Shown one piece after another: positions 10,921-53,818 of a stretch of 64,000 nt of DNA; position 1 is the stretch's first letter, and each line of letters begins with the position of its first letter. Origin of the DNA: Clostridiales bacterium (GTDB lineage Bacteria; Bacillota; Clostridia; Christensenellales; DTU072); the NCBI GenBank assembly GCA_012841525.1, contig DUUO01000005.1:129247-193246 (forward strand), in the 5' to 3' direction. The notes below the pieces were generated by a model, which made no database searches, was not told the DNA's origin, and saw only the letters and a list, made by a program, of their open reading frames with translations. A program made the translations under genes and the position numbers.

Positions 10921-10974
10921 TGCTATATTTTGCTAATATACAATATTTCTTGTTTTTTATGTTATTATAATAGT

Positions 10975-36050: not shown

Positions 36051-36051
36051 T

Positions 36052-36477
36052 TTAATTTAATATTTTTACTGCTTGCTCTTTTGCAATTAAATCACACTTA
36101 TTGTTATATGCATTATCCGAGTGACCTTTTACTTTAACAAAATTAACATTATGAGAGTTTATTTGTTTAATCAGTTCTTGCCATAAATCTGGATTTTTTA
36201 TTTTTTTAAAATTAATTTTTTCCCATTTTTCAATCCAATTTTGATTTATGGCATCAATTAAATATGCACTATCGCTATATAATATAACATTACACTTCTC
36301 TTTTAGTGCCTTAAGCCCTTCAATTGCTGCAGTTAATTCCATACGATTATTTGTTGTTTCTTTTTCTGAACCAGCAATAGTTTTTTCGAACTCATTATAT
36401 ATTAGTATCGCACACCAGCCTCCAGGACCAGGGTTTCCTAAGCATGAACCATCAGTGTATATCTCAACAGTTTTCAT
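36052..36477 (-). CDS. rnhA: Ribonuclease HI
   Basis: 141 aa with IYTDGSCLGNPGPGGW, NNRMEL, SDS and GHSDN..NNKCD catalytic motifs. Confidence 0.9.
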   Translation of the reverse strand: MKTVEIYTDGSCLGNPGPGGWCAILIYNEFEKTIAGSEKETTNNRMELTAAIEGLKALKEKCNVILYSDSAYLIDAINQNWIEKWEKINFKKIKNPDLWQELIKQINSHNVNFVKVKGHSDNAYNNKCDLIAKEQAVKILN

Positions 36478-36488
36478 TTTGCTTTCCT

Positions 36489-37298
36489 TTATAAGTTTCC
36501 ATCAGATAGTTCTTTAGCTCTATCTTTACATTTAACCATTCCTTCATTTATAACAGAAGAAAAATTATCTTGTTTAAATGAATTAATAGCCTCTATTGTA
36601 GTTCCACCTTTACTGCAAACCTTAGTAATAAAATCATCAATATTTTCATTTTTTATGCTCAAATATTCACTAGCACCGATAATAGTTTCTAAAACTATTT
36701 GTCTTGAAGTTTTTGAATCTAATCCCATATTAACTGCTGAATCAATCATTGATTTTGCAAAATATGCAACATATGCTGGGCCACTGCCAGAAATACTTGT
36801 AACAACATCAAACATATTTTCATCAATTTCAATTAACGTTCCACAATTAGCAAATAATAATAAAAATTTATTTAGATATATATTTTTTTTGTTATGACAA
36901 TATGCTATAACTCCTTTCCCGATTAAAACTGGTAAGTTTGGCATTAAACGAATCACTTCAATATCACTAAATCTTTTTTCAATTGTTTCAATTTTGATCC
37001 CTGCCATAATTGTTATAATTGTATTACATTGAAATTTTTCAATATTTTTAATTACATCAAAATATTGTTGTGGTTTCACAGCAATGACTACTGTTTTGCA
37101 CTCTAAAAAAACATCAGAAACATTTTTTGCGACATTTACACCCAAACTTTTAAATTTATTTAATTTTGCGTTGTCAAGATCATAAATTAAAACTTTTTTT
37201 GCTTCTAAATTTTCTTTTTTATTTGGAGCATTATAAATTATTTTTTCTAAAATTGCTCCCCCCATAACTCCAACACCTACAAAACCTATCTCATACAT
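36489..37298 (-). CDS. proC: Pyrroline-5-carboxylate reductase
   Basis: 269 aa. N-terminal Rossmann motif GFVGVGVMGGAI, then SGSGPAY, and the C-terminal dimerisation motif SKGGTT. Confidence 0.85.
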   Translation of the reverse strand: MYEIGFVGVGVMGGAILEKIIYNAPNKKENLEAKKVLIYDLDNAKLNKFKSLGVNVAKNVSDVFLECKTVVIAVKPQQYFDVIKNIEKFQCNTIITIMAGIKIETIEKRFSDIEVIRLMPNLPVLIGKGVIAYCHNKKNIYLNKFLLLFANCGTLIEIDENMFDVVTSISGSGPAYVAYFAKSMIDSAVNMGLDSKTSRQIVLETIIGASEYLSIKNENIDDFITKVCSKGGTTIEAINSFKQDNFSSVINEGMVKCKDRAKELSDGNL

Positions 37299-37370
37299 AA
37301 AAAACTCCTAACTATACTAATTATTGTATTGACTTAAAAATAATTTTAATATAAAATTAAGTAGAATTCA

Positions 37371-37446
<76 letters not shown>

Positions 37447-37460
37447 AATTACATTTATTA

Positions 37461-37487
37461 AAAAACCCTCTATCAAGAGGGTTTTTA
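37461..37487. terminator. Bidirectional rho-independent terminator (tRNA-Trp on +, ispH::S1 on -)
   Basis: Hairpin CCCTCT-ATCA-AGAGGG (37466-37481) flanked by an A5 run and a T5 run. Confidence 0.7.
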
Positions 37488-37494
37488 TGTTTTT

Positions 37495-39681: not shown

Positions 39682-39682
39682 A

Positions 39683-40348
39683 TTATTTAAAAAATTTAGA
39701 TGCCAAATTAACAGCTTGTTTGAAGGTATCTTCAATTGTGTTGTTTGATGTATCAATTTCTATAGCATCATCTGCTTTTTTTAATGGTGCAAAAGATCTA
39801 GTAGAATCTTGCAAATCTCTCGCTTTGATTTCATTTAATAGATCATCATATTCTACTTCAATACCATTTTGTGCTAACTCTTCTTTTCTTCTTTTAGCTC
39901 TCACTTCAGGCGTTGCTATTAAAAATATTTTAAGTGCTGCACTTGGCAAAACATAAGTTCCAATATCTCTACCATCTAACACACAATCATTTTGAGATGC
40001 AATTTTTCGTTGCATTTCTACTAGTTTTTTTCTCACTAATTTAATTTTAGATACAGTAGATGCGAGCATGCTTATTTCATTTGCTCTAATATCTTTTGAT
40101 ACATCTACTCCGTCTAAAAAAACATGTTGTGCTGAATTAATATATTTAATTTCCAAATTAACTTTATTCAAATGTTCTACAACCAGCTTTTCATTGTTTA
40201 CATCAATATTATTTTGCTTCATCGCCAATGCTATTGTGCGATACATGGCTCCTGTATCTAAGTACAATATATTAAATTCTTTAGCAATATTTTTTGCCAG
40301 TGTGCTTTTTCCTGAACCAGCGGGTCCATCAATTGCTATGTTTATCAT
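39683..40348 (-). CDS. cmk: Cytidylate kinase
   Basis: P-loop IDGPAGSGKST with the (d)CMP-binding motif DGRDIGT. The ATG at 40348 lies 9 nt after GGAGGAG; the track ORF starts at a TTG at 40366. Confidence 0.9.
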   Translation of the reverse strand: MINIAIDGPAGSGKSTLAKNIAKEFNILYLDTGAMYRTIALAMKQNNIDVNNEKLVVEHLNKVNLEIKYINSAQHVFLDGVDVSKDIRANEISMLASTVSKIKLVRKKLVEMQRKIASQNDCVLDGRDIGTYVLPSAALKIFLIATPEVRAKRRKEELAQNGIEVEYDDLLNEIKARDLQDSTRSFAPLKKADDAIEIDTSNNTIEDTFKQAVNLASKFFK

Positions 40349-41743: not shown

Positions 41744-42490
41744 TTAATTAGTAATTTTGCTATTTAAATATGAAATTCTAGCTTTTGCCGAAGCATCTGC
41801 AAAAAGTGGAGTTATTGTTGTATAACCTTGATTATACCAATACACATCCGTATCTTCTTTATTTTCAATGTTAATCGGATGACCTATTAATGTATATGAA
41901 TACAAATTATTATCATCTTTTCTTATTAGATATATATCACAAAATTTTCTCACACCAAGTGAAACTATTTTATGACCCTTGTTTCCTATTGATGGAGGAT
42001 TTATGTTAACTGAAATACAATATGTTTGTGAGACTAGTTTTAAATAAAAAGGTAAATTTTCAATAAAATAATTGGTTACATATTCAAAATCTTCCTCTTT
42101 TTCTATTTCTGAAGAAACTGCAATAGCCTTTAACCCTTCTAATGATGCTTCCATTGCAGCACTAACAGTGCCAGAATATGCAACATCGGTTCCTAGGTTT
42201 GCTTGATCGTTAATCCCTGATATAACTAAATCAGGTGGATTCCCTGCCATTAATGAAAGACCAATTTTAACACAATCTGCAGGAGTGCCTGAGGTAGCAT
42301 AGCAATCAAAAAATTCATTTTCAATTTTTTGAAGAGTTACTGGTTTGTTGAAAGTCATTGCATGAGACATTCCACTGCTGCATTTTTGCGGTGCAACCAC
42401 TGTTACTTTATGATTTTTACTTAGCTTCTTGGCTAGACTTAAAATACCTATTGATTTATATCCATCATCATTAACTAATAAAATATTCAT
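41744..42490 (-). CDS. surE: 5'/3'-nucleotidase SurE
   Basis: 248 aa with MNILLVNDDG, SGIN, GTDVAYSGTV and MEA motifs. Confidence 0.9.
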   Translation of the reverse strand: MNILLVNDDGYKSIGILSLAKKLSKNHKVTVVAPQKCSSGMSHAMTFNKPVTLQKIENEFFDCYATSGTPADCVKIGLSLMAGNPPDLVISGINDQANLGTDVAYSGTVSAAMEASLEGLKAIAVSSEIEKEEDFEYVTNYFIENLPFYLKLVSQTYCISVNINPPSIGNKGHKIVSLGVRKFCDIYLIRKDDNNLYSYTLIGHPINIENKEDTDVYWYNQGYTTITPLFADASAKARISYLNSKITN

Positions 42491-42555
42491 ATGTTTCTCC
42501 TAAATATTCAATGATTCCTTCATATGTTTTTTGACAAAATAGTGTACAAACTTTT

Positions 42556-43263
42556 TTAATTTATATCTTTTAATAATTTTATTTCTTTAGGCGTAAGATA
42601 TCTTGATTTTCCTCTAGGAAGCCCGCCAAGTTTTATAGGACCAACTTCAGTTCGCTTTAAAAATAAAACTTCTTTACCTAAATATTCAAAAATTCGCCTT
42701 ACTATTCTATTTCTCCCTTCTATAATTGATATTGATATTTTGGACTTTTCTGGCGAAACAAATATTTTGTTTACATTGCTAACATTTACTATACCATCGT
42801 CTAAAACAATATCACTTGATAGTTTTTTTATATCTGTATCTGTTATTTCTCCTTTTACAGTTATTTCATAGCGTTTTGAGATCTGATATTTCGGATGCAT
42901 GATTATATTTGCTAAATGGCCATCGTTAGTCAACAGCAAAAGACCTTCAGTATCATAATCTAATCTACCAATAGGAAATAAGCGTTTATTTTTGAGATTC
43001 AAATAATCATAAATAGTTTTCCTACCTTTGTCATCAGAAACTGTTGTAACACAGCCTTTTGGCTTATGAAACATTAGATAAGAAAAACTTTCGTTTAATT
43101 TGGTAATTTTACCATTAACTAAAACTTTATCATGTTCTTGGACAATGTACGACAAATCTGACAATACTTTTCCATTGACGACAACTTTTCCGTTTTTTAC
43201 TAATTCTTCAGCTTTGCGCCTTGATGTTATTCCACTTTGTGCAATAAATCTGTTAATTCTCAT
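42556..43263 (-). CDS. rluB: Pseudouridine synthase, RsuA/RluB family
   Basis: 235 aa. N-terminal S4 domain (RINRFIAQSGITSRRKAEELV) and the catalytic motif GRLDYDTEGLLLLTNDG. Confidence 0.85.
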   Translation of the reverse strand: MRINRFIAQSGITSRRKAEELVKNGKVVVNGKVLSDLSYIVQEHDKVLVNGKITKLNESFSYLMFHKPKGCVTTVSDDKGRKTIYDYLNLKNKRLFPIGRLDYDTEGLLLLTNDGHLANIIMHPKYQISKRYEITVKGEITDTDIKKLSSDIVLDDGIVNVSNVNKIFVSPEKSKISISIIEGRNRIVRRIFEYLGKEVLFLKRTEVGPIKLGGLPRGKSRYLTPKEIKLLKDIN

Positions 43264-43274: not shown

Positions 43275-46200
43275 CTATTTTTTTCTTCTAATTGCTTTTC
43301 TTAAAATTCTTTTACGTGCAAAAAACGAAAAAACTAAAATAATTACAGTTAATCCTAATACTCCACCAATAACAATATATGGCAAATTAGCACTTTTAAC
43401 ATTTGTTTGTCCACTTGATGTAACGTTGTAAGTAATCTTTTCTTCTTTGAAAACAAAATCATAGTTTTGAGCTTGTCCAACTTGTGGAATTGCAATATTT
43501 TCACCTAATTTTGATTGAGAAATTATAACTACAGGTTCTTTTTCTAAACTTGTAACATCATCATTTCCAAAAAATCCTTCATATTCTATTATAAATCTAG
43601 GCTTTTCTGATATAACAGTATCATCTATTTTTACTACTACAGTTAAATTTGCTTTTTTAACTCTAAAATTCAAACTACTTACTCCAGTGATAGTATAATT
43701 AGGATCTCTTGATGATACAACAACACTATAGTCACCAGCATCTTTTACTTCATTTGGACTAAATACTTTATAAGGCTTAAACAAGTCATCTTCCATTGCA
43801 CCATTTACTGTAATTAGAATGTTTTCTTTTTGGTCTTTGCCATTATACACAATGTTGTCATAATTAGAAAATGATATTGTTACTGCTTTTGGTTTTATAA
43901 CAAGTTTTCTTGTTTGAGTTGCAGCATTATAATTCGTGTTTTCTTCAAATTTAGCATATACTATATGATTTTCACCTGCTGGTGCATAAAGTAAATTTTG
44001 AGAATCAAAACTATAGGAAATAATTGCGTTTTCATTTAATCCAAAAGGACTTTTGGCTTTTGCTGTTATTTCAGTAAAACTACCATATTCTTGTCTAAAG
44101 TTTCCAGAAAATTCTATGATAGGATTTACTTTTTCAATAATTAAATTTGTTGCTGGGCCTTCTATTTCATAATCGCCTCTTTTTACAAAACTAGTAACTC
44201 TATATCTACCTGCATTAATTGGTGGTGTTGACTCCCCATCATAACTTAAATGTAGTGTTGCACCCTCAGCAAGCGATACACTTGCTTCTATTTCTTTAGG
44301 TTTGTTATCAAAACTTACAGTTTTTTCATTTAGAATTAAATCTCTATAAATAGGTAAAACTTTTGCTGGAATCGTTAACACATCAACTACATTTAATATG
44401 TAATTGTTTTCCAATTTATCTTCAGTGTCAGTAAAAATGCTTTTAAGTTTAATATTTCTTACTTGAACAGCATTTGGAGTAAGGTCATGACTTGGATAAA
44501 GCAATTCAGCAGAATAACCATCTATAAATAGCTTGTCAAGATCTGATTCTATTACATTTGTAAATTTATAATAACCACCTTGCGAAATATCTACATCAAC
44601 TGTGCCATCTTCGTATTTAACATACTCATTACCTGCTTGTATTCCAATATTTCTCTTTTGTATAATTAGCCTTGCTGTTATATTAGAGTTTGTAAAAATG
44701 TAATTTTGATCATTGTTTTCAACTTTAACTTTAATATTATATATACCAACATTTTTTATGTTCTCAATAGGAACAATATTTTCATTAATTTCTGTATATA
44801 AACTTATGTTAATATTTTGAGATTCAAGCGTTTCATTTCCTACTAAAGTAACTGGTTGAATATACAAATCAAAGTTATCGCCATAAATTGATTGTCTTTC
44901 GTCAACATTGAAAGCAACTTCTATTTCCTTTGCTAAAATTTCACCAGTTTGTTCAAGTTCATACTCACTTAATAAATCAAAGTTATTAGCATATCTATTG
45001 TCAACAAAATATTCTACAAATATAGTTTTATTGGCACCTGCATCTTTATTTGAAAATCTAGCACGTACTGACAAGCCTCTTAAAATGGCAACACTATCAA
45101 CAACTTCAGAGTTTTTCCATAAATTTTCTTCAATAATTACTTTGTCTGTACCATCGTAAATCTTATTAAGTGATAAATTTATTTCATATTTAGTTTTAAT
45201 CGGTCTTTTATCAATGTATAGGCGAACTTCAGAGTTAAGATCACTAACATAGTTTGTACTTTTCATGTTAATACTTAGCAAATAACCGTTATCATTAAAA
45301 TTAATGTGACCTTGTTCTAATTCACTTATAGAGGAATCATTCAAAGAAATATCAAAATATTGTCCCTTTTTTTCATATGAGTCATTTGCACTTCCATCGC
45401 CGACAGATTCTTCAGGGTTAATAATTTCTAAATAATCATAAATTTGTGACACATAGACATTATCACCATAGATAAAACGAAGAGCACCATCTTCTGGCGT
45501 ATCTATAGAGATTTTTTTAGGAAGTATTTGATATTTGTTTTCCATATTAACAGGATCAATTATTACTTCTATGTTTTTCTTATGTGGATGATCGTTGCCA
45601 TCTACTTTTTCCCAGTCATAACTTAGTAAGTCATAATAAGCAGCATTAGTAGCAATTGGAACCGTATATATTAAATTGAAAGTAATTTCAACGAAATTTG
45701 GCAAATTAACAGTTATTGTTTCTTTTAATTCTGGTGAAATATATGAACCATCATATTCTTTTGAAAATATTTTAGGATTAACATTATGCTTATATTTTAC
45801 AATTCTCACGCCATATTCATTAGAAGCAACTAAATTTATTTCATAATTATCATTTGATGATGTTGCTGTTTTGAAAGGATATATTCCATTATTTTCTGTT
45901 CTAACATCTTCACCTGGCTCTCTGGTGAGTGTAACTGTTATATCTTCAAAAATTGAACCGTGAGTTACTCTATGGACATAAGAATAAGAAAGATCAGACA
46001 TTCCAAACTCTTGAACTATTTCTCTATTTAGCGGTGTATACTGAATAGTCATCTTTTTAATTTCAAAGATTTTTTGAATATCAACACTTTCAAAAAATTT
46101 GTAATTTACATTTGTAATTGATAATTCTATTCTATATAGTCCAGCATTTTTTATTTCAGATACATCTATTTGTATCTCTTCTTGCTCCAATAGTTTTTTA

Positions 46201-49200
46201 TAATAAGCTGTTATGCCGAAAATATTATCAGAGCCAATAATATCTTGAGAGCTTGGAGTTATTTCTCTTACTTGAGCATTATAAGGAATTCCGTCTGCTA
46301 CTCCTTGTCCCCAAGATATATTTGAAATTGTTTTTTTCGTAATTTGAAAATAAAATATTTTATTGATGTTTTCATCCAAAACATAATTTGTTAGAGTTCC
46401 CTCTAAATCATCAATTTTTGCAACATATTCTCCTGCGTCCACAATGCTGGTAATAAATGTTTCATTACCATCCATATCAATAGAATAAAAATTAGGCGAA
46501 AATTGAATGAGTGATAACTCTTCTTTCATTTTGTTTTTTGCCTCAAGCGAGGCATTGTTATCTATTGGTATTTCTAATTTTGTTCCAATGTTCAAAGACT
46601 CTGCATTATATTCCCATGAACTTTGACCATCTGGTATTTTTTCGCCATCTTTTGTAAATACAGATGTAATTGTGGTTTTTAAAATTTCAAACTCAAAAAA
46701 TCTTTTGCTAACTTCAACGGTATAATTGGATGCTCTTTCATTGCTAGAAGTTGGTAAACTTACTTCTAGTCTATATCGACCAGCATCGCGCACGCTTATT
46801 AATACATCTGAATATACACCTTGACTAATTACACGTCTAAATTGTCTTATATACCAACTAGGTAATGAATCTTTATCAATTTCTGGAATTGAAGATGATG
46901 AGTTTTCTATAATTATTTGATCTTTTTTATCCAATGTATCATAAATAATTTCTCCACCATTAATGCTAAAATCAGGAGAAACAACTAATTTTTCAATGTA
47001 AAACTCTTGATAAATTGTTTCATCAATTAATTTATAATTATTTGATGCGGTTCCAATTAAGTTTGCTTTTGCAAAATATTTACTTGCATTAATTAAATTT
47101 TCTGGTGAAATGCTTGTACCTTGTTTTGTTAATTTGGTATATGATAATGATATGCTGATTTTAGTATCATCATTTTTATCATTTTCGCCTAGTTGATTTT
47201 CATCAGTAAAATTACAATTAATTGTTTTAACATTGTCATCAAAAACTAAATTAGTATAATTAGAAAAAGTGACACTGACATCTTTTTTCTTTATATCAAA
47301 ATAAAAAGCTTCTGATATTAATTCATAATTTGCATTATTTGGATCTTCTGGATTAAGAGAATTTTCTACATAATATGAGCCACTATTTACAACTTCATTT
47401 TCCGTAATTTCTGAATAGTTAGATTCTCCATCAGCTTTGTAAAAATATGATAAAACAACACTTGCTGGAAAAGATGATAGACTCTTACCTATTTCAAATG
47501 TTATATTTTCCTTCAAATTAAAACTGTTGTAAACATATTCCCTGTTACCTGTATATGTAAAACTCAACGCTCTCTTAGTTATATCAAAATTAACATCCTT
47601 TTCACCAGTATAATTACCATTTCCAATAATTTTAACTATTGCTTCTCCCACATTAACATTGTCGGAGTATGTTAAATTGTAATCTACCAATAAATATAAT
47701 GTCTCAATGATGTTATTTCCTTTTTTTAATCTAACATTAACATTTGGTGTAATTGCTTCTCCTCTAAATTCTTGAGGCAAAATTCTAGAAATTTCAATGC
47801 TTGGCATATCAGAATAAATCGCAGATAAATCATATGGAATAACATTAATTTTAACTTCATTTCCTACAGGTGCTCCATCTTCCCAAATTTCAGGTTTATA
47901 GTTATTGCTGCTACTACCTGTAATTATTACAGTACCTTCATACTGACCTACATTAGTAATTTCACTATGATTAGGAATAGAAATTTCAACAGAAACATTT
48001 TGTAAGTCTGAATTTTCAATGCCTGATCTTTCATAAGTTATTTTGCTTTTAATATCTTCTCCTCTATAAACAAATTCTTTCTGAGGAATCGTTATTTTTA
48101 TGGTTTTAGGTTTAACATTAAAAACAAATTCACTTGATGGCATTTTAATTTTGAAGTTAGGATTAACGCTAGTATATGTCGGTGAAATTTTATATGTTCC
48201 AACATCTTTTACTGAATTTACTATTAAATCATCAACATAATAATTTAAATTTACCTTATTTAATTCTGCTCTTGTAAGCCTTGGCTCTTCGTCTGTAACT
48301 TGAACAGCGTTAATAAATGGTTTTAAGTCAGTTGCATTATATGTCAATTCTGAAAATAATGCTTCATTGAATTTATACGCTAAAGTAAAAGCAAATTTTT
48401 CAATTGATATGTTTGCAGTTTTTGTACTTGCATTGATTATATAATTTTGAAATTCCTTCGTCGTCCCTTGTCCTGTGGTTTCTTTTACGACTAGGCTTGC
48501 TTCTACTTTATAAGTTATTGCATCACGAAAATCAGATACTTCATTTGTTGCAGCTTTTCTGAATATATATGTCCACTCAAGCTCTCTTTGGCCAGATTTA
48601 TCTCTATTATATATATCTTCACTTGAATTTGTAACAGCATAATTTTGTTCATTTCCGTTATATACTAAGGGAATATAATCACTAGATAAAATATCAATTC
48701 CATTAATTTCCCATACAACATCTATTACTTTTGCTACTACTCTAAACATTTTACCTCTAGAAGTTATTTCAAATCCTTCTCTCAATTCATAATTGTTACT
48801 ATCAGACCCACTTAATGTAAGTCTAAAATAGTATGTTCCTACATCAACTGCATCAACTGCAATGGTATCGTTAGAATTGTTGGATAAATAACTTTTAGAT
48901 GATAGTGAGACATCCTCATTACTGACAACTCCACTTGGCTCTACTTGTGGAATTATAGGTGCACCTATGTAATTATAACTATATGCTCCATCGTCTCCTA
49001 ATTGACCAAGAGAATCTTCAGAATATACAAAATCAAGTTTTCTTTTTGTTATTTTACCAGAAGTAAAACGCATTTCATTTGTTGTGGTTTTATAGTTTAC
49101 ATAATCTAATGACATTGTTCCATTTACATCTACTCCACACAATGTAATTCCTGTGATTGTAATTTCTTTATTATCTCCTACACTCTTATCAGAAAATTCT

Positions 49201-51467
49201 GCATGTTCATAATTAAGGTCAAATTCATCACCAGAAATAATACCTTGGACTTTATAATGAACATTTCTTATTAAATTTGTTCCTAGATTAGTGGTGCCAT
49301 CATACTCTCTAGATAAAGTACCTGTACCATTTTCTAATGTAACCACTTTTTGATTTATTTCAAGTTTAAACTTCAGTTTGTTTTCAAAAGAATTATTATA
49401 TACATAGATTTCAGAAGGATGTGTTACACTATTACCAGCAATAACATCACCATCTTGTAAATCTTCAAATATGTCATTTTCATATTTTTTCAATACAAAA
49501 TTATAGATTCCCGCTGTTTTTGGAATTTGTAGTGGTAAATTGCTAGATGCATCTATACTATTTGGTAGTTGTTGAGCTTCTGGGTACCCTTCTACAGGTG
49601 TATGTGTCATATACCATCTTAAAGATGAACTGAAAGAAGAACTCCCACTTAGCGACGCATTAAAATCTTTATTTTCTCCATTGTATTCAAAGACAGGAGT
49701 TGAGTTATATTTATTACTGTCTATTTTATAATCTACATTGATATCTTGTGATGTTATGGTGCATGTAAAAATTGCATCTAATTGGCCATAATCAAGATTA
49801 AAATAAAAATCATAACTTTTAGCTTTATTTGAATAGACTGAAATGTATTTATTGGGATCTCCAGATAACTGATATTTAAGTGCTGAAAGATATTTTTCAG
49901 ATGCCACACCTAAATCTACACAAATTTTAACTTGATATTTTAGAGGATTAGAACTAACTTTTTCAAAGCTACTGTATGAAACTGTAGCATTATTTATTCT
50001 ATCTGCATTTATGTTATTTCCATCATATACTGGAATTTTAACTTCTATATTTGTAGTTGTAGATGCAAGAATTCCATTGAACCCTAAATAATCATTGTTT
50101 GGTTGAGATATATAATTATCCCTAGATTCACGTTTGTTGTTTTTAACATTACCATCATTTCTAACGCCAGATGCAGATGATGGAATACCAACATTAACTT
50201 GATTATACGATGAAACTATAGCGTTGTTTGTAGAATTGTCTCTAAACATATACTTAATTGAAGTTTTAGTATCAACTGTATCACCAACTAAAAGTCTAGA
50301 TTTTCTTGAAAAACCAGACCCTGTTGAACCAACAACCAAGCCATTGTATTTATAAATCAAACCTTCAACATTAAACCAAGAAATATCAGTAAAATTCTTG
50401 CCAGATAAAATTCCCGCAGAATCATTAAAGATATGCGAGGTTGAACTAGACCCTCCTCCCTTTAATAAAGCAACTACAGCTCCACTACCTTCCACCAATA
50501 CACAGTTCAGTTTTGTTTTTGACTCAGTATCTGCTAAGCCGACAAATAACCCTGCTTGTGAACCATAATCAGAAATATGCACGTGTGTCTTACTTCCTTC
50601 ACCTCGAGATGACTCATATGTTATGCCAGCCACTTTACTATGAGATCGAGAAACCACAAGACCATCATGCTTAATAGAAACATTATTTGCAGTAAAATCA
50701 TTGCTAATTCCTACAACCAAGCTGACTGTAGCACTTACTGCTCTATCTTGTATCGACTTTGGGTAAATGTAATTAGGCCAAAAACCTTCCATTGGCAGAT
50801 CCGACGTCCCACTCATATTATCAATTCCCTCAACAACAAGACGAGAATTAGGTTTTGTTTCAATTTTTACATCTGTAATTGATGATGAAACACTTGAACT
50901 TCCTGCCAAAAGTCCAACATGAATTCTTGAAACTATTGTGCTATCAACTAAATTTCCACCGATATTTTTAGAATTATTTGAGTATGTGACATTAATATTA
51001 GCCGCAAATATTACATTTAAATTTGAGATTTGAGTATGGTTTAAATTCCCAAATAAAAGACCAACACTGATGTTTTCTTCATCATTCAAATCACCGCTAT
51101 GAGTATAATTCAATGTTTTAGTTCCTATTACAGTAATCGTATGACCATCACCGTCGAATTTTACGTTATTTAATGTTCTCTTTAAGGCATTGCTATTTGG
51201 CGAATTGTTAGCAGAATAATCTAAGGTAATATCATTTGCTAAGAAATAATCACCAGTTACAGTATCTTGGCTGCCAGAATAAAAAGCTTGAAAAAATTCT
51301 TCCCCATTCGTAATTGGAATTGGCTCTGCAGCATATACAATTTTAATGGGATGCATATATGAATTTGAAGCAATAAAAATGCCAAATAATAGCAATAAAA
51401 TCGCTAAAATAAACAATGAGATAAATTTAATGTGATTTGTCTTTGTTTTCATTATAAGCAACACCAT
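43275..51467 (-). CDS. Giant (2730 aa) surface protein: signal/TM N-terminus, GLUG-motif beta-helix region, many MBG/YDG-type repeats, C-terminal TM anchor
   Basis: This is the single longest ORF in the window. The N-terminal hydrophobic segment is FISLFILAILLLLFGIFIA. FDGDGHTI and repeated G-L-[LF]-x-G motifs (VGLLFGN, VGLLAGS, AGLFVGL) follow. Then come roughly two dozen ~85-100-aa repeats carrying Y-[DN]-G / NY motifs (e.g. FRGEAITPNVNV...DYNLTYSDNVNVGEAIVKIIGNGNYTGEKDVNFDITK). The C-terminus is IVIGGVLGLTVIILVFSFFARKRILRKAIRRKK with no LPXTG. An alternative start lies at ATG 51452 (MKTKT). Confidence 0.85.
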   Translation of the reverse strand: MVLLIMKTKTNHIKFISLFILAILLLLFGIFIASNSYMHPIKIVYAAEPIPITNGEEFFQAFYSGSQDTVTGDYFLANDITLDYSANNSPNSNALKRTLNNVKFDGDGHTITVIGTKTLNYTHSGDLNDEENISVGLLFGNLNHTQISNLNVIFAANINVTYSNNSKNIGGNLVDSTIVSRIHVGLLAGSSSVSSSITDVKIETKPNSRLVVEGIDNMSGTSDLPMEGFWPNYIYPKSIQDRAVSATVSLVVGISNDFTANNVSIKHDGLVVSRSHSKVAGITYESSRGEGSKTHVHISDYGSQAGLFVGLADTESKTKLNCVLVEGSGAVVALLKGGGSSSTSHIFNDSAGILSGKNFTDISWFNVEGLIYKYNGLVVGSTGSGFSRKSRLLVGDTVDTKTSIKYMFRDNSTNNAIVSSYNQVNVGIPSSASGVRNDGNVKNNKRESRDNYISQPNNDYLGFNGILASTTTNIEVKIPVYDGNNINADRINNATVSYSSFEKVSSNPLKYQVKICVDLGVASEKYLSALKYQLSGDPNKYISVYSNKAKSYDFYFNLDYGQLDAIFTCTITSQDINVDYKIDSNKYNSTPVFEYNGENKDFNASLSGSSSFSSSLRWYMTHTPVEGYPEAQQLPNSIDASSNLPLQIPKTAGIYNFVLKKYENDIFEDLQDGDVIAGNSVTHPSEIYVYNNSFENKLKFKLEINQKVVTLENGTGTLSREYDGTTNLGTNLIRNVHYKVQGIISGDEFDLNYEHAEFSDKSVGDNKEITITGITLCGVDVNGTMSLDYVNYKTTTNEMRFTSGKITKRKLDFVYSEDSLGQLGDDGAYSYNYIGAPIIPQVEPSGVVSNEDVSLSSKSYLSNNSNDTIAVDAVDVGTYYFRLTLSGSDSNNYELREGFEITSRGKMFRVVAKVIDVVWEINGIDILSSDYIPLVYNGNEQNYAVTNSSEDIYNRDKSGQRELEWTYIFRKAATNEVSDFRDAITYKVEASLVVKETTGQGTTKEFQNYIINASTKTANISIEKFAFTLAYKFNEALFSELTYNATDLKPFINAVQVTDEEPRLTRAELNKVNLNYYVDDLIVNSVKDVGTYKISPTYTSVNPNFKIKMPSSEFVFNVKPKTIKITIPQKEFVYRGEDIKSKITYERSGIENSDLQNVSVEISIPNHSEITNVGQYEGTVIITGSSSNNYKPEIWEDGAPVGNEVKINVIPYDLSAIYSDMPSIEISRILPQEFRGEAITPNVNVRLKKGNNIIETLYLLVDYNLTYSDNVNVGEAIVKIIGNGNYTGEKDVNFDITKRALSFTYTGNREYVYNSFNLKENITFEIGKSLSSFPASVVLSYFYKADGESNYSEITENEVVNSGSYYVENSLNPEDPNNANYELISEAFYFDIKKKDVSVTFSNYTNLVFDDNVKTINCNFTDENQLGENDKNDDTKISISLSYTKLTKQGTSISPENLINASKYFAKANLIGTASNNYKLIDETIYQEFYIEKLVVSPDFSINGGEIIYDTLDKKDQIIIENSSSSIPEIDKDSLPSWYIRQFRRVISQGVYSDVLISVRDAGRYRLEVSLPTSSNERASNYTVEVSKRFFEFEILKTTITSVFTKDGEKIPDGQSSWEYNAESLNIGTKLEIPIDNNASLEAKNKMKEELSLIQFSPNFYSIDMDGNETFITSIVDAGEYVAKIDDLEGTLTNYVLDENINKIFYFQITKKTISNISWGQGVADGIPYNAQVREITPSSQDIIGSDNIFGITAYYKKLLEQEEIQIDVSEIKNAGLYRIELSITNVNYKFFESVDIQKIFEIKKMTIQYTPLNREIVQEFGMSDLSYSYVHRVTHGSIFEDITVTLTREPGEDVRTENNGIYPFKTATSSNDNYEINLVASNEYGVRIVKYKHNVNPKIFSKEYDGSYISPELKETITVNLPNFVEITFNLIYTVPIATNAAYYDLLSYDWEKVDGNDHPHKKNIEVIIDPVNMENKYQILPKKISIDTPEDGALRFIYGDNVYVSQIYDYLEIINPEESVGDGSANDSYEKKGQYFDISLNDSSISELEQGHINFNDNGYLLSINMKSTNYVSDLNSEVRLYIDKRPIKTKYEINLSLNKIYDGTDKVIIEENLWKNSEVVDSVAILRGLSVRARFSNKDAGANKTIFVEYFVDNRYANNFDLLSEYELEQTGEILAKEIEVAFNVDERQSIYGDNFDLYIQPVTLVGNETLESQNINISLYTEINENIVPIENIKNVGIYNIKVKVENNDQNYIFTNSNITARLIIQKRNIGIQAGNEYVKYEDGTVDVDISQGGYYKFTNVIESDLDKLFIDGYSAELLYPSHDLTPNAVQVRNIKLKSIFTDTEDKLENNYILNVVDVLTIPAKVLPIYRDLILNEKTVSFDNKPKEIEASVSLAEGATLHLSYDGESTPPINAGRYRVTSFVKRGDYEIEGPATNLIIEKVNPIIEFSGNFRQEYGSFTEITAKAKSPFGLNENAIISYSFDSQNLLYAPAGENHIVYAKFEENTNYNAATQTRKLVIKPKAVTISFSNYDNIVYNGKDQKENILITVNGAMEDDLFKPYKVFSPNEVKDAGDYSVVVSSRDPNYTITGVSSLNFRVKKANLTVVVKIDDTVISEKPRFIIEYEGFFGNDDVTSLEKEPVVIISQSKLGENIAIPQVGQAQNYDFVFKEEKITYNVTSSGQTNVKSANLPYIVIGGVLGLTVIILVFSFFARKRILRKAIRRKK

Positions 51468-51521
51468 TTAATGTTCGAATTCATTTTTCAGTAAATTTTA
51501 ATGAAGCTTCTACTTCTATTT

Positions 51522-51550
51522 AATTATATAACATTTTAGCATAGCGTGAA
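51522..51550 (-). promoter_or_regulatory. Candidate sigma-A promoter for the giant surface-protein gene
   Basis: On the minus strand: TTTCAC (51550-51545), a 17-nt spacer, then TATAAT (51527-51522) with an upstream TG (TGTTATATAAT), about 55 nt before the ORF. Confidence 0.35.
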
Positions 51551-51564
51551 AGAGGAAAATATTA

Positions 51565-52275
51565 TTAATCGATTTCTAAAAAATCTTCACCTTCTAGAAA
51601 ATCTGGCACTTCATCTACATCTAGTCTATCATTTTCTTCAATTAAGATATTATTTTCTTCTTCATCGCTGTCATCTGCAATATTTTTTTGCTTAAATAGT
51701 CTTTGATCGCCATATAACATTTCATATTTTGTTTTAATTTCATTCATTATAAAATCATATTTTGGCATATCACTTAAGCTTTTTAATCCAAATTTTTTCA
51801 AAAACTCTTCTGTTGTAGCATATAAAATAGGCCTTCCAATTGTATCTTTTCGTCCTACAGGATAAATTAAATTTAATCTTGATAGCATTGAAATTGCATA
51901 TTCAGGATTAATTCCACGCAAATCCTCTATTTCTGCTCTTGTTATTGGTTGTTTGTAAGCAATTATGGCAAGAACTTGTAATAGAACTTTGCTAATTTCT
52001 CTTTCTTTCGTTTCAACTAAAATTTCAGATATTACTTCTCCGTATTTTGGATTTGATTGAAATTGCATTTTGTTTCCAAATCTTATCAATAAAATGCCAT
52101 TATCATTTGAAAATTCCTTTTCAAGCTCTAAAATTGCATTTGATATCACTTCTTTTGAAAAATATTCTGCTAACTCAATGTAAATTTTATCAACAATAAT
52201 TCCACTGCCGTTTGCAAAAATTAAGGCTTTAATTATTTCTTTTGCTTTTTTTGATTGACTTAAATCTTTTCCCAT
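51565..52275 (-). CDS. scpB: Segregation and condensation protein B
   Basis: 236 aa with tandem wHTH (ALIFANGSGI...; QPITRAEIEDLRGI...GRPILYATT..FLKKFGL) and an acidic C-terminal tail. Confidence 0.9.
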   Translation of the reverse strand: MGKDLSQSKKAKEIIKALIFANGSGIIVDKIYIELAEYFSKEVISNAILELEKEFSNDNGILLIRFGNKMQFQSNPKYGEVISEILVETKEREISKVLLQVLAIIAYKQPITRAEIEDLRGINPEYAISMLSRLNLIYPVGRKDTIGRPILYATTEEFLKKFGLKSLSDMPKYDFIMNEIKTKYEMLYGDQRLFKQKNIADDSDEEENNILIEENDRLDVDEVPDFLEGEDFLEID

Positions 52276-52296
52276 AACATTTAATCCTTCAATGAT

Positions 52297-53100
52297 TTAT
52301 TCATAACTATCGATATTTTCAAATAATGTCTCGATTTCAAATTCTAAGTTATTTTCGTTAAATTTTATTAAAATGTCTCTTTCCTCTTGGTTAATATTGA
52401 TAATATTAAGCTTTACTAACTCAAGAACAGCTAAAAAAGTTGTAATTTTCTCGGTTTTTGAGAAATCATCATCTATTAATTTTGAAAATAGAAAACTTTT
52501 TTTGTCTTTGACATATTTAGCCAAATATTCAATCCTATTTGCCACAGAAAATCTTTCTTTTTCTATAACTTTTGGTATAGTTTTTACTTCAAAAAACTCT
52601 TCATTTTCTTCTAAAAGCAACTTAAATGCCTCTACCATCTTATCAATAGTAGAATCTTTGACAATCAATACTGCATCTTTGTCAGTAAATTCAGGACTAC
52701 GATAAAATCTATTTAAAATTTCTTTGTTAGATAATTCATTCGCTGCTTCTTGAAGCATTCTATATTCTTCAGCCTTTAGAAACAAAAGTTCTTCAGAATC
52801 AACCTCCTCAAAATCATCTTCTAAAGAATCGTTTAGAGGTAAAAGTCTTGCAGATTTAATTTCAATAAGCATTGCTGCATAGACTAAAAATGCAGATATT
52901 TCATCATAATCCTTTTCTTCATTTTGCATTTTTTCAACATATTTTACAAACTCAGAAGTAATATTTGAAATAAATATGTCCCTAATATCTACCTTATTTG
53001 TGCTACACAAGTTTAATAAAACCTCAATTGGCACACTTTCTTCGTATTCTGAATAAGAAACATTAAATTGATTATCATTTTTCAAATTATGCGATGACAT
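52297..53100 (-). CDS. scpA: Segregation and condensation protein A (kleisin)
   Basis: 267 aa. The N-terminus PIEVLLNLCSTNKVDIRDIFISNITSEFVKY is typical of ScpA, and the gene sits directly upstream of scpB. Confidence 0.85.
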   Translation of the reverse strand: MSSHNLKNDNQFNVSYSEYEESVPIEVLLNLCSTNKVDIRDIFISNITSEFVKYVEKMQNEEKDYDEISAFLVYAAMLIEIKSARLLPLNDSLEDDFEEVDSEELLFLKAEEYRMLQEAANELSNKEILNRFYRSPEFTDKDAVLIVKDSTIDKMVEAFKLLLEENEEFFEVKTIPKVIEKERFSVANRIEYLAKYVKDKKSFLFSKLIDDDFSKTEKITTFLAVLELVKLNIININQEERDILIKFNENNLEFEIETLFENIDSYE

Positions 53101-53818
53101 GAGCTGCTCCTTTCATTACTGCAAAGTCTAATTTATCAATTAACATTCCCACCATTCCAAATAAATCCAAATACCAAATATCAAGTGCTCGCATAATATT
53201 GCTAAAAATAATGAAACCGATAAGTATATATGTACCGTATTTGACCATAAATAATTTATATTTAGCGCCAACATCATATGGTAAAATTGTGCTTAAAAAA
53301 TTATAACCATCCAACGGATAAATTGGCAAAATGTTAAAAACAGCCAAAATAATGTTAATTTGCAAAGAAATTCTAAAAAGATATATAAAAAATTTAATAA
53401 ACATTCCCGATGCGTAAGAATTAGATACATACACGGTAAAAAATGCTAGATAAGTGAAAAAAAGAAATAATAAACTAATCAATGCCACGATAATATTTGA
53501 TATTACACCAGCAAGAGAAACCTCAATCATGCCCTTTTTATAGTTAGAAAAATTATTAGGATTTATTGGAACAGGCTTCGCCCAACCAAAGCCTATAAGC
53601 AAAAGCATTAAAAAACCAAGTGGTGAAAAGTGAGCAACAGGATTAAATGTTAACCTATTGTTAATTTGTGCAGTTAAATCACCATTTCTTTTTGCTGCAT
53701 AACCATGGCTTACTTCATGTAATACAACTGCAAAAGTTCCAGCAATTGCAAAAGATAAAAGCAATAATATAATATCAACAGCATCAATACCACTACGAAT
53801 TAAATTATAAATGAACAT
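53087..53818 (-). CDS. Site-2 protease family zinc metalloprotease (peptidase M50), membrane-embedded
   Basis: 243 aa. It is polytopic and hydrophobic, with the HExxH motif (LHEVSHG) in TM1 and PIYPLDG downstream. It overlaps scpA by 14 nt. Confidence 0.8.
   Translation of the reverse strand: MFIYNLIRSGIDAVDIILLLLSFAIAGTFAVVLHEVSHGYAAKRNGDLTAQINNRLTFNPVAHFSPLGFLMLLLIGFGWAKPVPINPNNFSNYKKGMIEVSLAGVISNIIVALISLLFLFFTYLAFFTVYVSNSYASGMFIKFFIYLFRISLQINIILAVFNILPIYPLDGYNFLSTILPYDVGAKYKLFMVKYGTYILIGFIIFSNIMRALDIWYLDLFGMVGMLIDKLDFAVMKGAAHVIA

Follow-up and report, generated by a model that had tools for sequence, protein, structure and literature searches.

The giant gene between scpB and rluB in this Clostridiales bacterium is a syntenic ortholog that has been kept inside the scpAB-rluB block of housekeeping genes throughout a deep clade. 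Its product belongs to a new family of fibrillar-adhesin-like proteins in uncultured Christensenellales-type Clostridia, every building block of which is of a known type. This product is probably a giant type I membrane protein, specific to the clade and inherited vertically, which serves as a fixed-length surface fibril for contact with cells or particles.

The reading frame

Within the window, as we call the whole stretch of 64 kb that was analysed, the gene occupies positions 43275-51467 of the minus strand, a strand not stated in the initial annotation. The list of open reading frames and its translation give a product of 2730 aa with the stop codon at 43277-43275. The frame is single and unbroken over 8.2 kb and fills 12.8% of the window, in agreement with the earlier figure of about 13%. 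The likelier start is M6 (ATG at 51452), which yields a protein of 2725 aa; a GGTG is located 11 nt upstream of this second ATG.

The NCBI record HHX48992.1 (P0001) holds an identical protein of 2725 aa and is one of eight near-identical full-length alleles in NCBI, ENA and Logan assemblies, all of exactly this length. Over the length of the gene, the two alleles compared as DNA show 12-21 nt differences from the window. No tandem or direct DNA repeats were found in the giant gene, and hence there is nothing in it that could collapse during assembly; eight full-length alleles of the same length from separate assemblies likewise indicate that the reading frame is not an artefact. Because the DNA comes from a metagenome-assembled genome and giant genes with repeats are easily mis-assembled, a chimeric or mis-assembled region, or a decaying pseudogene that is open by chance, still had to be considered. 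The alleles from independent datasets, the absence of repeats and the collinear orthologs of 2595-3106 aa with intact frames in about 18 lineages effectively refute such an origin, and its probability is negligible.

Family membership and length constancy

The family consists of about 18 lineages, and its members are collinear from end to end. An exhaustive HMMER search recovered 16 full-length representatives, all of them within the range of 2595-3106 aa, and when the family is aligned, about 2400 of 2730 columns are collinear, with an identity of 23-25%. We defined membership by a specific N-terminal region, collinearity over 2600-3100 aa, a signal together with a C-terminal transmembrane (TM) segment, and a gene position directly downstream of scpB; the window protein has all of these features, with a family-specific N-terminal region of about 550 aa. 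The exhaustive search was needed to find the family; when only the head was used in a word-indexed protein search, a single fragment (P0025) came up. A scan of genome contigs gave, among the matches listed, one true family locus (L005) and four unrelated loci of MBG/GLUG type (L006-L009), and these matches provide no estimate of the taxonomic spread. Database annotation of the family is limited to 'hypothetical' or 'YDG domain-containing protein', and a literature search for a giant adhesin of Christensenellales found nothing.

Differences in length and repeat number among strains had been expected from the initial annotation, but within 90% clusters the lengths hardly change, and DNA tandem repeats are absent from the gene. 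In a second cluster, 10 of the 11 full-length members listed measure 2595 aa and the other one 2597 aa, while in a third cluster 2700 aa is the length of 8 of the 12 full-length members listed, the others having 2703 and 2716 aa. Small genomes also retain the gene, at a cost of about 0.5% of their DNA; the allele of a close relative lies on a contig of 1.72 Mb.

Sequence variation among strains is distributed unevenly along the protein. The head, which makes up 16% of the length, holds 13 of the 32 strain polymorphisms, while only two of the 32 fall within aa 2401-2730. Six amino-acid changes forming two haplotypes are located at aa 434-456, and in this loop the window differs from L012/L013 by six nonsynonymous and no synonymous changes within 66 nt. 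Near-identical strains show a ratio of nonsynonymous to synonymous changes of 11:1 in the giant gene and of 7:3 in the flanks (the values for cmk and ispH are to be disregarded on account of wrong coordinates), counts that are too small for a claim of positive selection.

Genomic context

According to Pfam, the gene is preceded on the minus strand by an M50-family peptidase (53087-53818), scpA (52297-53100) and scpB (51565-52275), together spanning 51565-53818, and is followed on the same strand by rluB (42556-43263) and surE (41744-42490), spanning 41744-43263. This position directly after scpA-scpB and upstream of rluB-surE was found in all eight lineages checked, and the order M50 peptidase-scpA-scpB is alike in the same number (8/8). 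In the distant syntenic lineages the flanking proteins are only 37-56% identical to those of the window. The place of the gene as a syntenic ortholog in the scpAB-rluB block, the main point of the present report, had been missed by the initial annotation.

rluB starts 11 nt past the stop codon of the giant gene, with a GGTG before its ATG, and in L001 the stop of the giant gene and the start of rluB overlap by 4 nt. The spacer between scpB and the giant gene measures 97 nt (51468-51564, minus strand), and no terminator was detected in it. The short gaps, the overlap of stop and start and the lack of terminators suggest that the giant gene is probably transcribed jointly with scpA-scpB and rluB-surE. 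The spacer also contains a promoter-like site, TTCACG-16-TATAAT at 51550-51523, which we counted against the step of co-transcription. Since our scan for promoters and terminators gave a total of 84 sites against a chance expectation of 78, and thus not above chance, this site is considered only a candidate promoter.

N-terminal signal and topology

The signal sequence covers aa 1-46 (51330-51467, minus strand), and the hydropathy scan places the N-terminal hydrophobic segment at aa 9-39, in line with the signal or TM segment proposed earlier. A basic n-region comes first, followed by a hydrophobic core of 19 aa (FISLFILAILLLLFGIFIA) and a spacer of 13 aa, after which VYA|AE forms a putative signal-peptidase I site. 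In 18 of 18 family members the layout is the same: n-region and h-region are followed, after 10-18 residues, by an AxA that immediately precedes the mature domain; this conservation points to a cleaved signal peptide and a type I topology. The spacer of 10-18 aa between h-region and AxA is unusually long, and this was counted against the step of signal cleavage.

The initial annotation had described the protein as 'tail-anchored', a term for proteins that lack an N-terminal signal, keep their N-terminal domain in the cytosol and insert one C-terminal TM after translation. Such a topology was rejected on account of the n/h/AxA segment in 18/18 members and of the extracellular-type domains in the body of the protein. 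The proposal that the protein is held in the membrane by both termini is likewise unlikely, because the conserved AxA suggests that the N terminus is cleaved off.

Head and post-head region

The head (about aa 47-430; 50178-51329, minus strand) is all-beta and beta-helix-like, and it carries the FDGDGHTI motif and the recurring G-L-[LF]-x-G rung motifs on which the initial annotation had based its assignment to GLUG. We take the F-D-G-x-G-H-T-I cap and the G-L-x-G rungs to resemble the GLUG pattern. The motifs are present as described, but membership in GLUG is not borne out, as Pfam Glug (PF07581; membership at 20.5 bits or above) gives no match to the whole protein or to 310-aa fragments, even at E <= 10. 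Among 17 family heads, one matches Glug (E 0.0035) and one Pectate_lyase_5 (PF20585; E 1.6e-6), for which the window protein itself gives E 8.5 at aa 67-171; P0050, which shares the N-cap, has a Glug match.

The AF2 model of the head has a pTM of 0.80, with pLDDT values of 70-98 in most 10-residue blocks and a few dips into the 50s at surface loops. Its best PDB matches by Foldseek are the IgA1 proteases 6xjb, 6xja, 7uvl and 7uvk, which align over about 400 columns with a probability of 0.44-0.94, E 0.04-0.2 and a TM-score of about 0.2, and are thus not significant. No PDB sequence was matched by a profile of the head at an E below 0.25. The IgA1 protease has a beta-helix as its N-terminal domain, and its catalytic residues are located in the middle and C-terminal domains (PMC7695701). 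The window protein has no protease domain, unlike the IgA1 protease, and neither Pfam nor NCBIfam detected a catalytic family in it. The lack of a significant match between the head and any solved adhesive domain (E >= 0.04) was counted against the reading as an adhesin.

The head is followed by a loop of low confidence at aa 431-475 (50043-50177, minus strand), where the AF2 pLDDT falls below 50 at aa 438-472 and which is the hot spot of strain polymorphism. The post-head region (aa 476-700; 49368-50042, minus strand) contains two beta-rich domains, as indicated by AF2 (pLDDT 65-87) and by the family consensus, with the conserved motifs YLSAL-Y and G-x-Y...P-S-x-I-Y; it is found only within the family.

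Stalk modules

Twenty-one beta-sandwich modules, divergent in sequence and each about 95 aa long, make up the stalk (aa 701-2686; 43410-49367, minus strand); they are of the YDG, MBG_2 (YGX) and MBG_3 types. A conserved N-[YF] motif at the module end marks 19 of them at spacings of 85-116 aa, apart from two gaps of about 157 aa in which two motif-variant modules were placed by eye. The two dozen modules estimated in the initial annotation are therefore close to the count obtained here, with 21 modules in the stalk and two beta domains at aa 476-700.

With the gathering score as the limit for membership, Pfam supports all three module types. YDG (PF18657) reaches 35.9 bits (cutoff 25) at aa 706-782 and is also found at about aa 2100-2162; MBG_2 (PF18676) reaches 33.8 bits (cutoff 25) at aa 1837-1881, with a further module at about aa 2620-2677; and MBG_3 (PF18887) obtains 32.1 bits on a fragment with aa 2385-2446 but only 22.4 on the whole protein, and occurs also at about aa 2540-2606. 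The MBG/YDG assignment made earlier is thus upheld for the modules that pass these thresholds, although Pfam recognises only about six of the 21. When the protein was compared with itself by BLASTP at E 1e-2, no internal matches appeared, and hence plain sequence comparison cannot count the modules. An hhalign profile-profile self-comparison of the family alignment links many of the remaining modules to one another at 80-98% probability. When the YDG module (aa 700-790) served as seed for an iterated HMM, the search settled on only three modules per protein. Several subtypes are represented among the stalk modules.

In the AF2 model, aa 1531-2730 form a string of beta domains that ends in a terminal helix (pLDDT of the AF2 models about 77), and the best fold matches of the stalk are Ig-like arrays, namely the neck of GhpA (E 1.5e-15), contactin, DSCAM, Sap and titin. 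A profile of the C-terminal region retrieves MBG/YDG proteins at 1e-38 to 1e-104; in the last word-indexed search with this profile, only unrelated MBG/YDG proteins and no named members of the family were found. The most conserved part of the protein in the family is formed by the membrane-proximal modules (aa 2373-2686; 43410-44351, minus strand), with a windowed conservation of 0.50-0.61 compared to 0.3-0.45 elsewhere.

C-terminal anchor

A TM helix (aa 2698-2716, IVIGGVLGLTVIILVFSFF; 43320-43376, minus strand; hydropathy 2.73), which L-P-Y precedes, lies near the C-terminus, and the AF2 terminal helix spans aa 2695-2729. It is followed by a cytoplasmic basic tail (aa 2717-2730, ARKRILRKAIRRKK; 43278-43319, minus strand), in which nine of 14 residues are K or R. 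All 18 of 18 family members have a C-terminal TM segment, and every one has a tail of 14-35 aa with 6-12 K/R. The C-terminal 50 aa contain no LPXTG-type motif, and no anchor domain was found in the protein. These results bear out the C-terminal TM helix with an Arg/Lys tail and without LPXTG that had been noticed earlier.

NCBIfam models for sorting signals do not reach their cutoffs in the whole protein or in ten C-termini of the family. TIGR01167 (LPXTG_anchor) does not match the window protein, while one relative obtains 15.1 bits against a cutoff of 15.9, through TM and tail only. Neither a sortase TLxTC motif nor an LPXTG substrate occurs within the 64-kb window. A sortase substrate of the LPXTG type was rejected, given that the motif is absent and TIGR01167 unmatched. 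Pfam finds no SLH, CWB2 or other wall-binding module, and an S-layer protein or one anchored by SLH or CWB2 was also rejected; the match to the Sap assembly domain (E 2.9e-8) reflects generic Ig-like arrays.

Comparison with known surface proteins

The head, the YDG/MBG-type Ig-like stalk and the C-terminal membrane anchor without a sortase signal give the protein a fibrillar-adhesin-like architecture, as the initial annotation had proposed. Like the fibrillar adhesins of Monzon, Lafita and Bateman, it is very long, with an N-terminal head distal to the anchor, stalk modules of the YDG, MBG_2 and MBG_3 types that pass Pfam thresholds, and a head of beta-solenoid type, as in several of their Firmicutes clusters (PMC9210967). 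In that survey YDG and MBG serve as stalk domains, and beta-solenoid heads are common in Firmicutes (PMC9210967). Of the features by which such adhesins are recognised, repeated folded domains are present as the 21 beta-sandwich modules, and a distinct beta-helix-like head lies where a recognised adhesive domain would be expected; the head itself matches none of the adhesive Pfam families, with the Pectate_lyase_5 scores given above for the protein and one relative. The sortase motif or known anchor domain is replaced by TM and basic tail; fibrillar adhesins use LPXTG or wall-binding anchors. Moreover, the stalk modules of the giant protein are all different from one another and individually orthologous across the family, and while fibrillar adhesins are fast-evolving and accessory, the family described here is core-like, syntenic and of fixed length.

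The repeats of Ebh are helical (FIVAR/GA and DUF1542), and truncation or strain-to-strain variation of its genes is common. Ebh and Embp share with the giant protein the size, the secretion signal, the C-terminal TM and the absence of LPXTG, but there is no homology between them, and the helical repeats and variable genes of Ebh contrast with the beta-sandwich modules and invariant length found here. In S. aureus, Ebh combines a signal sequence with a TM domain and has no LPXTG (PMC4856396). Giant surface proteins of Gram-positive bacteria that are anchored in the membrane therefore have a precedent, and so does the C-terminal TM anchor that the initial annotation had called unusual.

Periscope proteins such as SasG, Rib and SGO_0707 are length-variable rods of near-identical tandem domains (bioRxiv 10.1101/2020.12.24.424174). 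They likewise project an N-terminal functional domain on a rod of tandem folded domains, but the giant protein has no highly similar tandem repeats at the protein or DNA level and no meaningful variation of length within lineages. The lack of self-BLASTP matches, the lack of DNA repeats and the near-fixed lengths within 90% clusters led us to reject this type.

Two further similarities are of a structural kind. The GLUG-motif or Peptidase_M26_N beta-helix region of the streptococcal IgA1 metalloproteases is the best structural match of the head, at an insignificant E and with no protease domain on our side. The top fold match of the stalk model is GhpA, the grappling-hook protein of Aureispira (9flp, 9flw, 9flv), and both are very long Ig-like chains; with a TM-score of about 0.1 and 10% identity this match represents generic Ig-like arrays, and organism, secretion route and head differ.

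Proposed function

The architecture suggests how a contact fibril might be assembled. The protein would be exported through Sec by its N-terminal signal, which is probably cut at the conserved AxA. The 21 individually conserved YDG/MBG-type Ig-like modules (aa 701-2686) would form a stalk of about 80-100 nm, calculated at about 4 nm per domain, with the beta-helix-like head (about aa 47-430) and the two beta domains (aa 476-700) at its distal tip, while the single C-terminal TM and the short basic cytoplasmic tail would hold the protein in the cytoplasmic membrane without a sortase. The gene would probably be expressed from a joint transcript with its neighbours scpA-scpB and rluB-surE. The most likely role seems to be contact with partner cells, with the organism's own kind (aggregation) or with polysaccharide particles. 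The 13 polymorphisms in the head mean that variation is biased towards the tip, as expected of an exposed binding end.

Typical adhesins are accessory, strain-variable and often moved horizontally, and the core-like, syntenic and fixed-length nature of the giant gene counts against a role as adhesin. It may instead be an envelope-architectural protein of the Ebh type, which organises or protects the envelope through wall spacing, cell size or shielding; we hold this to be rather unlikely, even though it would explain the behaviour as a core gene. It agrees with the fixed position in the scpAB-rluB block in 8/8 lineages, the near-invariant length within lineages and the retention in small genomes, as well as with the layout of signal and C-terminal TM without LPXTG that Ebh has too. 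Ebh reportedly affects cell size, according to one paper. As conservation peaks in the membrane-proximal 330 aa of the stalk and not in the head, a structural role in the envelope fits this feature at least as well. Nevertheless, the giant protein has no relation to Ebh in sequence or fold, and the family-specific head of about 650 aa with its tip-biased polymorphism suits a binding end better than a spacer.

A surface-displayed enzyme, whose beta-helix head, displayed at a distance on the stalk, would act as a polysaccharide lyase, hydrolase or other catalytic domain on polymers or neighbouring cells, appears improbable to us. Pectate lyases and many glycosidases fold as right-handed beta-helices, one family member matches a pectate-lyase-like Pfam family, and the best PDB match of the head is a protease chain; some beta-helix heads in the fibrillar-adhesin survey also have catalytic proteins as best matches (PMC9210967). 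On the other hand, PF20585 is described in Pfam as a 'putative pectate lyase-like adhesive domain' and not as catalytic, the catalytic residues of the IgA1 protease lie outside its beta-helix (PMC7695701), and the searches for catalytic families were negative, as reported above. The C-terminus invites another interpretation, in which motif, TM and basic tail are an unrecognised sorting signal cleaved by a dedicated enzyme, leading to wall linkage or release. With a short motif ahead of a hydrophobic helix and a basic cluster, the C-terminus mimics known signals, (T/L)-P-Y directly precedes the Gly-rich TM in 11 of 18 members, GG_III-CTERM scores of 15-16 bits (cutoff 22) in three of ten members accompany the near-threshold LPXTG_anchor score, and a gene of an intramembrane-protease family (M50) is conserved three genes upstream. 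However, all models stay below cutoff, (T/L)PY is absent from seven of 18 members, and the tails, which reach 35 aa, have a conserved pattern of their own (Y-R-S-M-Y-N-V...K-K-K-V) and are longer than usual sorting tails. Substrates of S2P, moreover, usually have a TM orientation opposite to that of the giant protein. We judge such a signal very improbable.

Returning to the contact fibril, synteny, conservation and the known phenotype of the lineage allow a more specific, though doubtful, proposal, namely that the family is the conserved surface organelle of Christensenellales-type Clostridia for constitutive self-aggregation and for association with hydrogen consumers such as methanogens. 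Cultured Christensenella species flocculate, and Methanobrevibacter smithii grows inside the flocs; the study names no molecular determinant (PMC7002349). A role in aggregation or partner association would explain why a vertically inherited gene of fixed length stays within an operon of housekeeping genes, even where the genome has about 1.7 Mb. A further and more radical version, likewise doubtful, would trace the invariable linkage to scpA-scpB and the conserved basic cytoplasmic tail to a functional coupling between the envelope and the chromosome or division.

The fixed length, the conserved modules, the locked position between scpB and rluB and the retention in small genomes argue for a surface function that defines the lineage; the group is related to the health-associated and methanogen-associated Christensenellaceae. 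Giant repeat-rich surface proteins are usually regarded as fast-evolving, strain-variable accessories. The head with its adjoining domains (aa 47-700) represents a concrete candidate for work on aggregation or partner attachment.

An intact giant gene

The giant gene lies at 43275..51467 on the minus strand, where the ORF list and translation give a single unbroken frame of 2730 aa, in agreement with the one uninterrupted 8.2-kb ORF, about 13% of the window, of the initial annotation (the exact share is 12.8%, in a window of ~27% G+C). An identical protein of 2725 aa is deposited at NCBI (HHX48992.1, a hypothetical protein from a 'Clostridiales bacterium' MAG), and it begins at the second ATG of the gene, at 51452. 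GGTG stands 11 nt before this second ATG, and no comparable GGTG signal was seen in the sequence upstream of the first; the upstream context therefore makes M6 the likelier start, although residues are numbered here from the first ATG.

The 90% cluster of the window protein holds eight full-length alleles from NCBI, ENA and Logan, the window's own protein (P0001) included, each exactly 2725 aa. Compared at DNA level, two of them have 12 and 21 nt differences to the window across the gene (8178 nt). TRF and a direct-repeat search were both negative for repeated DNA within it. The intact frame, the equal-length alleles with their few nucleotide differences and the lack of DNA repeats therefore exclude a pseudogene as well as the frameshift or assembly collapse that had been considered possible artefacts.

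The head and the modular stalk

We modelled aa 46-700 with AlphaFold2 on a 17-sequence family alignment (pTM 0.80, mean pLDDT 76.7). The model is essentially all-beta to ~aa 430, and a low-confidence loop (aa 438-472) and two more beta-rich domains follow up to aa 700. Against the PDB, Foldseek gave the model nothing at E <= 0.001; long matches were limited to IgA1 metalloproteases, from S. pneumoniae and G. haemolysans (~400 columns, probability 0.44-0.94, E 0.04-0.2; the output does not give the aligned residues). IgA1 protease has a beta-helix within its N-terminal domain (PMC7695701), on which the match may fall. The motifs on which a GLUG-type beta-helix region had been proposed are present in the window protein (FDGDGHTI; VGLLFG, VGLLAG, AGLFVG and the like), those of its relatives being nearer to A-G-G-L-x-G. 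The proposal agrees with the all-beta model, but not with the domain search, as Pfam Glug had no match in the window protein, whole or as 310-aa fragments, at E <= 10 and matched only one of the 17 family heads (E 0.0035). PF20585, the 'putative pectate lyase-like adhesive domain', also matched one of the 17 (E 1.6e-6), and aligned to aa 67-171 of the window protein at E 8.5. 'GLUG-like beta-helix' is a reasonable name for the fold class of the head, not a demonstrated membership of the Glug family.

Self-BLASTP of the giant protein found no internal similarity, and a single-seed HMM recovered only three YDG-type modules. Pfam places YDG (PF18657) above threshold at aa 706-782, with a sub-threshold second copy at ~2100-2162, while MBG_2 (PF18676; aa 1837-1881 and ~2620-2677) and MBG_3 (PF18887; aa 2385-2446 and ~2540-2606) pass threshold as families. 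Profiles link the other modules: in a self-comparison of the family-alignment profile, 100-residue windows match off-diagonal throughout 790-1790 (80-98% probability) and again around aa 2500-2600, and the profile of the C-terminal region retrieves proteins bearing PF18676, PF18657 or PF18887 (E 1e-38 to 1e-104). The protein is thus of the YDG/MBG class, and the divergent modules are as first described. An N-[YF] dipeptide kept in at least 60% of members occurs 19 times at a spacing of 85-116 aa, and one motif-variant module was placed by eye in each of two ~157-aa gaps in this series, which gives a stalk of 21 modules of ~95 aa at aa 701-2686. The earlier estimate of about two dozen modules of ~85-100 aa therefore stands for their size and comes close for their number.

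In the AlphaFold2 model of aa 1531-2730 a row of beta domains ends in a helix (aa 2695-2729); its pLDDT is 77 and its pTM 0.30, the latter a value to be expected of beads on a string. Arrays of Ig-like domains match this fold best, with the GhpA neck (E 1.5e-15) in first place and contactin, DSCAM, the Sap S-layer assembly domain and titin among the others.

The two hydrophobic ends

In a hydropathy scan the protein shows no more than two TM-like segments: aa 9-39, where an N-terminal signal/TM segment had been read from the sequence, and aa 2692-2719, where a C-terminal TM helix had been. The N terminus comprises a basic n-region, a 19-residue hydrophobic core and, 13 residues on, VYA|AE; in every family member an n-region and h-region are followed 10-18 residues further by the putative signal-peptidase I motif AxA. 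At the other end, every member has a TM segment and a K/R-rich tail of 14-35 residues, in the window protein L-P-Y, a 19-residue Gly-containing TM helix and then ARKRILRKAIRRKK.

LPXTG is absent from this C terminus, and all NCBIfam sorting-signal models remained below cutoff on the C termini (GG_III-CTERM, 15.7 bits against 22). The basic tail and the missing LPXTG were thus correctly noted, and neither a recognised sorting signal nor an S-layer anchor came to light; the protein classes neither as a sortase substrate nor as an S-layer protein. The term 'tail-anchored' has to be dropped, since the n-region, h-region and AxA found in every member place the protein outside that class. The claim that membrane anchoring is unusual among Gram-positive adhesins holds only in part: Ebh has a signal sequence and a TM domain without LPXTG (PMC4856396), as does the giant protein.

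In 11/18 members (T/L)-P-Y directly precedes the Gly-rich C-terminal TM helix (aa 2695-2697 in the window protein; 43377-43385, minus strand). We also observed a common pattern, Y-[RK]-S-[MI] ... K-[KR]-x-[IV]-R, in the cytoplasmic tails of many members. These could be an unrecognised sorting or interaction signal.

A collinear family of fixed length

When 1.84 billion representative proteins were searched exhaustively with HMMER and the head profile, 16 full-length proteins were retrieved, all of 2595-3106 aa and with the head at ~residues 45-600. Matches beyond these and two fragments are confined to the F-D-G-x-G-H-T-I cap within the first 100-150 positions of the profile; one such cap-only match, P0050, bears a Pfam Glug match. 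Together with the window protein and its nearest relative P0002, the 16 proteins form a family of 18 lineages. Identity to the window protein in the alignment is 57% for P0002, 46% for P0026 and 23-25% for distant members, and even the latter align over ~2400/2730 query positions. Because members align nearly end to end, the 21 modules are individually orthologous throughout the family rather than recent tandem duplicates.

Length, which the initial annotation proposed to compare among assemblies, barely changes within 90% clusters. Beside the window's cluster (2725 aa in 8/8), one has 2595 aa in 10/11 full-length members listed and 2597 in the remaining one, others span 2621-2640 aa or have 2700 aa with a few at 2703 or 2716, and in another 11/12 long members have 3084-3111 aa and one has 2938. 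The giant protein is thus no periscope protein. The sole sign of recent internal duplication within the family is in P0037 (2761 aa), where ~60 aa of the post-head region, …HKYEYAISTVV…GTAKITRLYNNLLTVDVDCSEYNGKKTNEAKYWISALSYKRSGST…, occur twice almost exactly; the duplication may be genuine or may have arisen during assembly of that MAG.

Outside the family, the head-profile matches P0042, P0043 and P0044, large secreted proteins that have Big-like or MucBP domains, carry the N-terminal cap (~100 aa around F-D-G-x-G-H-x-I) 4-6 times each, as a repeated unit of ~150-190 aa. In most of them the unit has no Pfam annotation, suggesting an undescribed repeat family.

Inheritance with a housekeeping block

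On the minus strand of the window the genes run M50-family peptidase, scpA, scpB, giant gene, rluB, surE, HI0933-like flavoprotein, cmk and ispH-S1. An equal order is found in 8/8 lineages examined: the window and the loci of P0002 (L001/L002), P0006 (L003/L004), P0029 (L005, an 'uncultured Christensenellaceae' MAG), P0039 (L010), P0041 (L011), P0033 (L014) and P0032 (L015). Five of these loci (L003, L005, L010, L014 and L015) have an S11 carboxypeptidase and, at 150-188 aa and/or 49-110 aa, one or two small ORFs between the giant gene and rluB (YtfJ being annotated in L010 only); in the neighbourhood of the scpAB-giant block they carry a spoIVB-like (S55) gene and two that are dacB/dacF-like (S11). 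None of these spoIVB-like, dacB/dacF-like and small-ORF genes is present in the block in the window, L001 or L011, which is consistent with a loss of sporulation genes in reduced genomes that kept the giant gene.

The gaps between scpB and the giant gene are 26-180 nt, the giant stop codon is 11 nt from the rluB start in the window and overlaps it by 4 nt in L001, and no terminator-like site was found at either junction. G+C content varies between 27% and 48% among the loci measured. In the nearest lineage the flanking proteins share 65-88% identity and the giant protein 56%; in distant lineages the figures are 37-56% and 24-27%. The gene thus evolves faster than its neighbours and yet has been inherited together with them. 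One member of the P0002 cluster is a 'YDG domain-containing protein [Christensenellales bacterium]' on a 1.72-Mb contig, and the host group is best described as uncultured Christensenellales-type Clostridia. The M50 (site-2 protease family) peptidase gene (~243 aa; 53087-53818, minus strand) lies directly upstream of scpA in every family locus, with equivalents seen in L001, L003, L005, L010, L011, L014 and L015; its place may reflect the usual gene order of Clostridia or a link to the giant protein.

Conservation and strain variation

Among distant members the membrane-proximal stretch aa 2400-2730 is the most conserved, followed by the head parts aa 101-150 and 301-350. The eight near-identical alleles vary at 32 positions, 13 of them in the head, a density of 30 per 1000 aa where the C-terminal half has 5-6. 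Six changes fall within 66 nt (50100-50165, minus strand; aa 434-456), all nonsynonymous and none synonymous; they form two haplotypes among the eight alleles, GVR..K..R..P and DII..Q..C..T, in a loop with AF2 pLDDT < 50. Codon 226 (50790-50792) is tri-allelic (ATG/AGG/AAG, M/R/K). Diversifying selection or allele exchange could account for the variation at both sites, the counts being too small to decide. Between the window and the locus L012 the giant gene has 11 nonsynonymous and one synonymous difference, and ~12 kb of flanking genes seven and three, too few for positive selection to be demonstrated. Variation biased towards the tip would be expected of an exposed distal end.

Other features of the window

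A full-length OLE (ornate, large, extremophilic) RNA (RF01071; 391 bits, E 1.6e-111) lies at 10966-11556 on the plus strand, between xseA (9536-10666) and an ORF at 11621-12301 (plus strand), after which come NAD kinase, argR and recN. The product of this ORF, a membrane protein of 226 aa whose Pfam match of CNNM/DUF21 type is weak, is a candidate OLE-associated protein. At ~32000-37500 both the orientation of the genes (plus strand to ~36 kb, minus strand beyond) and the GC skew switch, the cumulative skew having its maximum near 32-36 kb. Where the two orientations converge lie a tyrosine-recombinase/integrase-like ORF (32789-33865), LexA-like and PadR-like ORFs, RNase H and tRNA-Trp (37371-37446), the names being taken from same-length L012 products at matching positions rather than from a scan of window ORFs. 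This region may be replication-terminus-like, or no more than a pair of operon blocks in opposite orientation. With its anticodon CCA, the tRNA-Trp at 37371 agrees with the standard genetic code. In all related loci ispH (LytB) is fused to S1 RNA-binding domains, here as one ORF of ~750 aa (37495-39756, minus strand), and a cluster of six tRNAs (Pro, Met, Asp, Phe, Thr, Tyr) occupies 5097-5646 on the plus strand.

Function and alternatives

The domain order, the two hydrophobic ends without known sorting signals, the Ig-like stalk and the conservation and synteny of the family are established. The gene would be co-transcribed with scpAB and rluB, and its product exported by Sec and cleaved at AxA, leaving a type I protein with the C-terminal helix alone in the membrane. 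At ~4 nm each, 21 modules would form an extended stalk of ~80-100 nm, and the head may serve in contact or adhesion. Fibrillar adhesins use YDG and MBG as stalk domains and frequently have beta-solenoid heads (PMC9210967). The giant protein shares this domain vocabulary in its YDG/MBG stalk, and by analogy it most likely works like a fibrillar adhesin or a giant surface fibril.

The main rival is an envelope-architectural role like that of Ebh, favoured by the core-gene behaviour of the giant gene and by conservation near the membrane. An enzymatic head is less likely, and so is an unrecognised C-terminal sorting signal, for which (T/L)PY precedes the TM helix in 11/18 members and the GG_III-CTERM matches are sub-threshold only.

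The novelty lies in the family itself, whose members so far carry no annotation beyond hypothetical or 'YDG domain-containing'. It also evolves in an unusual way, combining fixed length, module-by-module orthology and a locked place in a housekeeping block. Christensenella shows constitutive flocculation and co-aggregation with methanogens (PMC7002349), and we speculate that the giant family may be the determinant of both.
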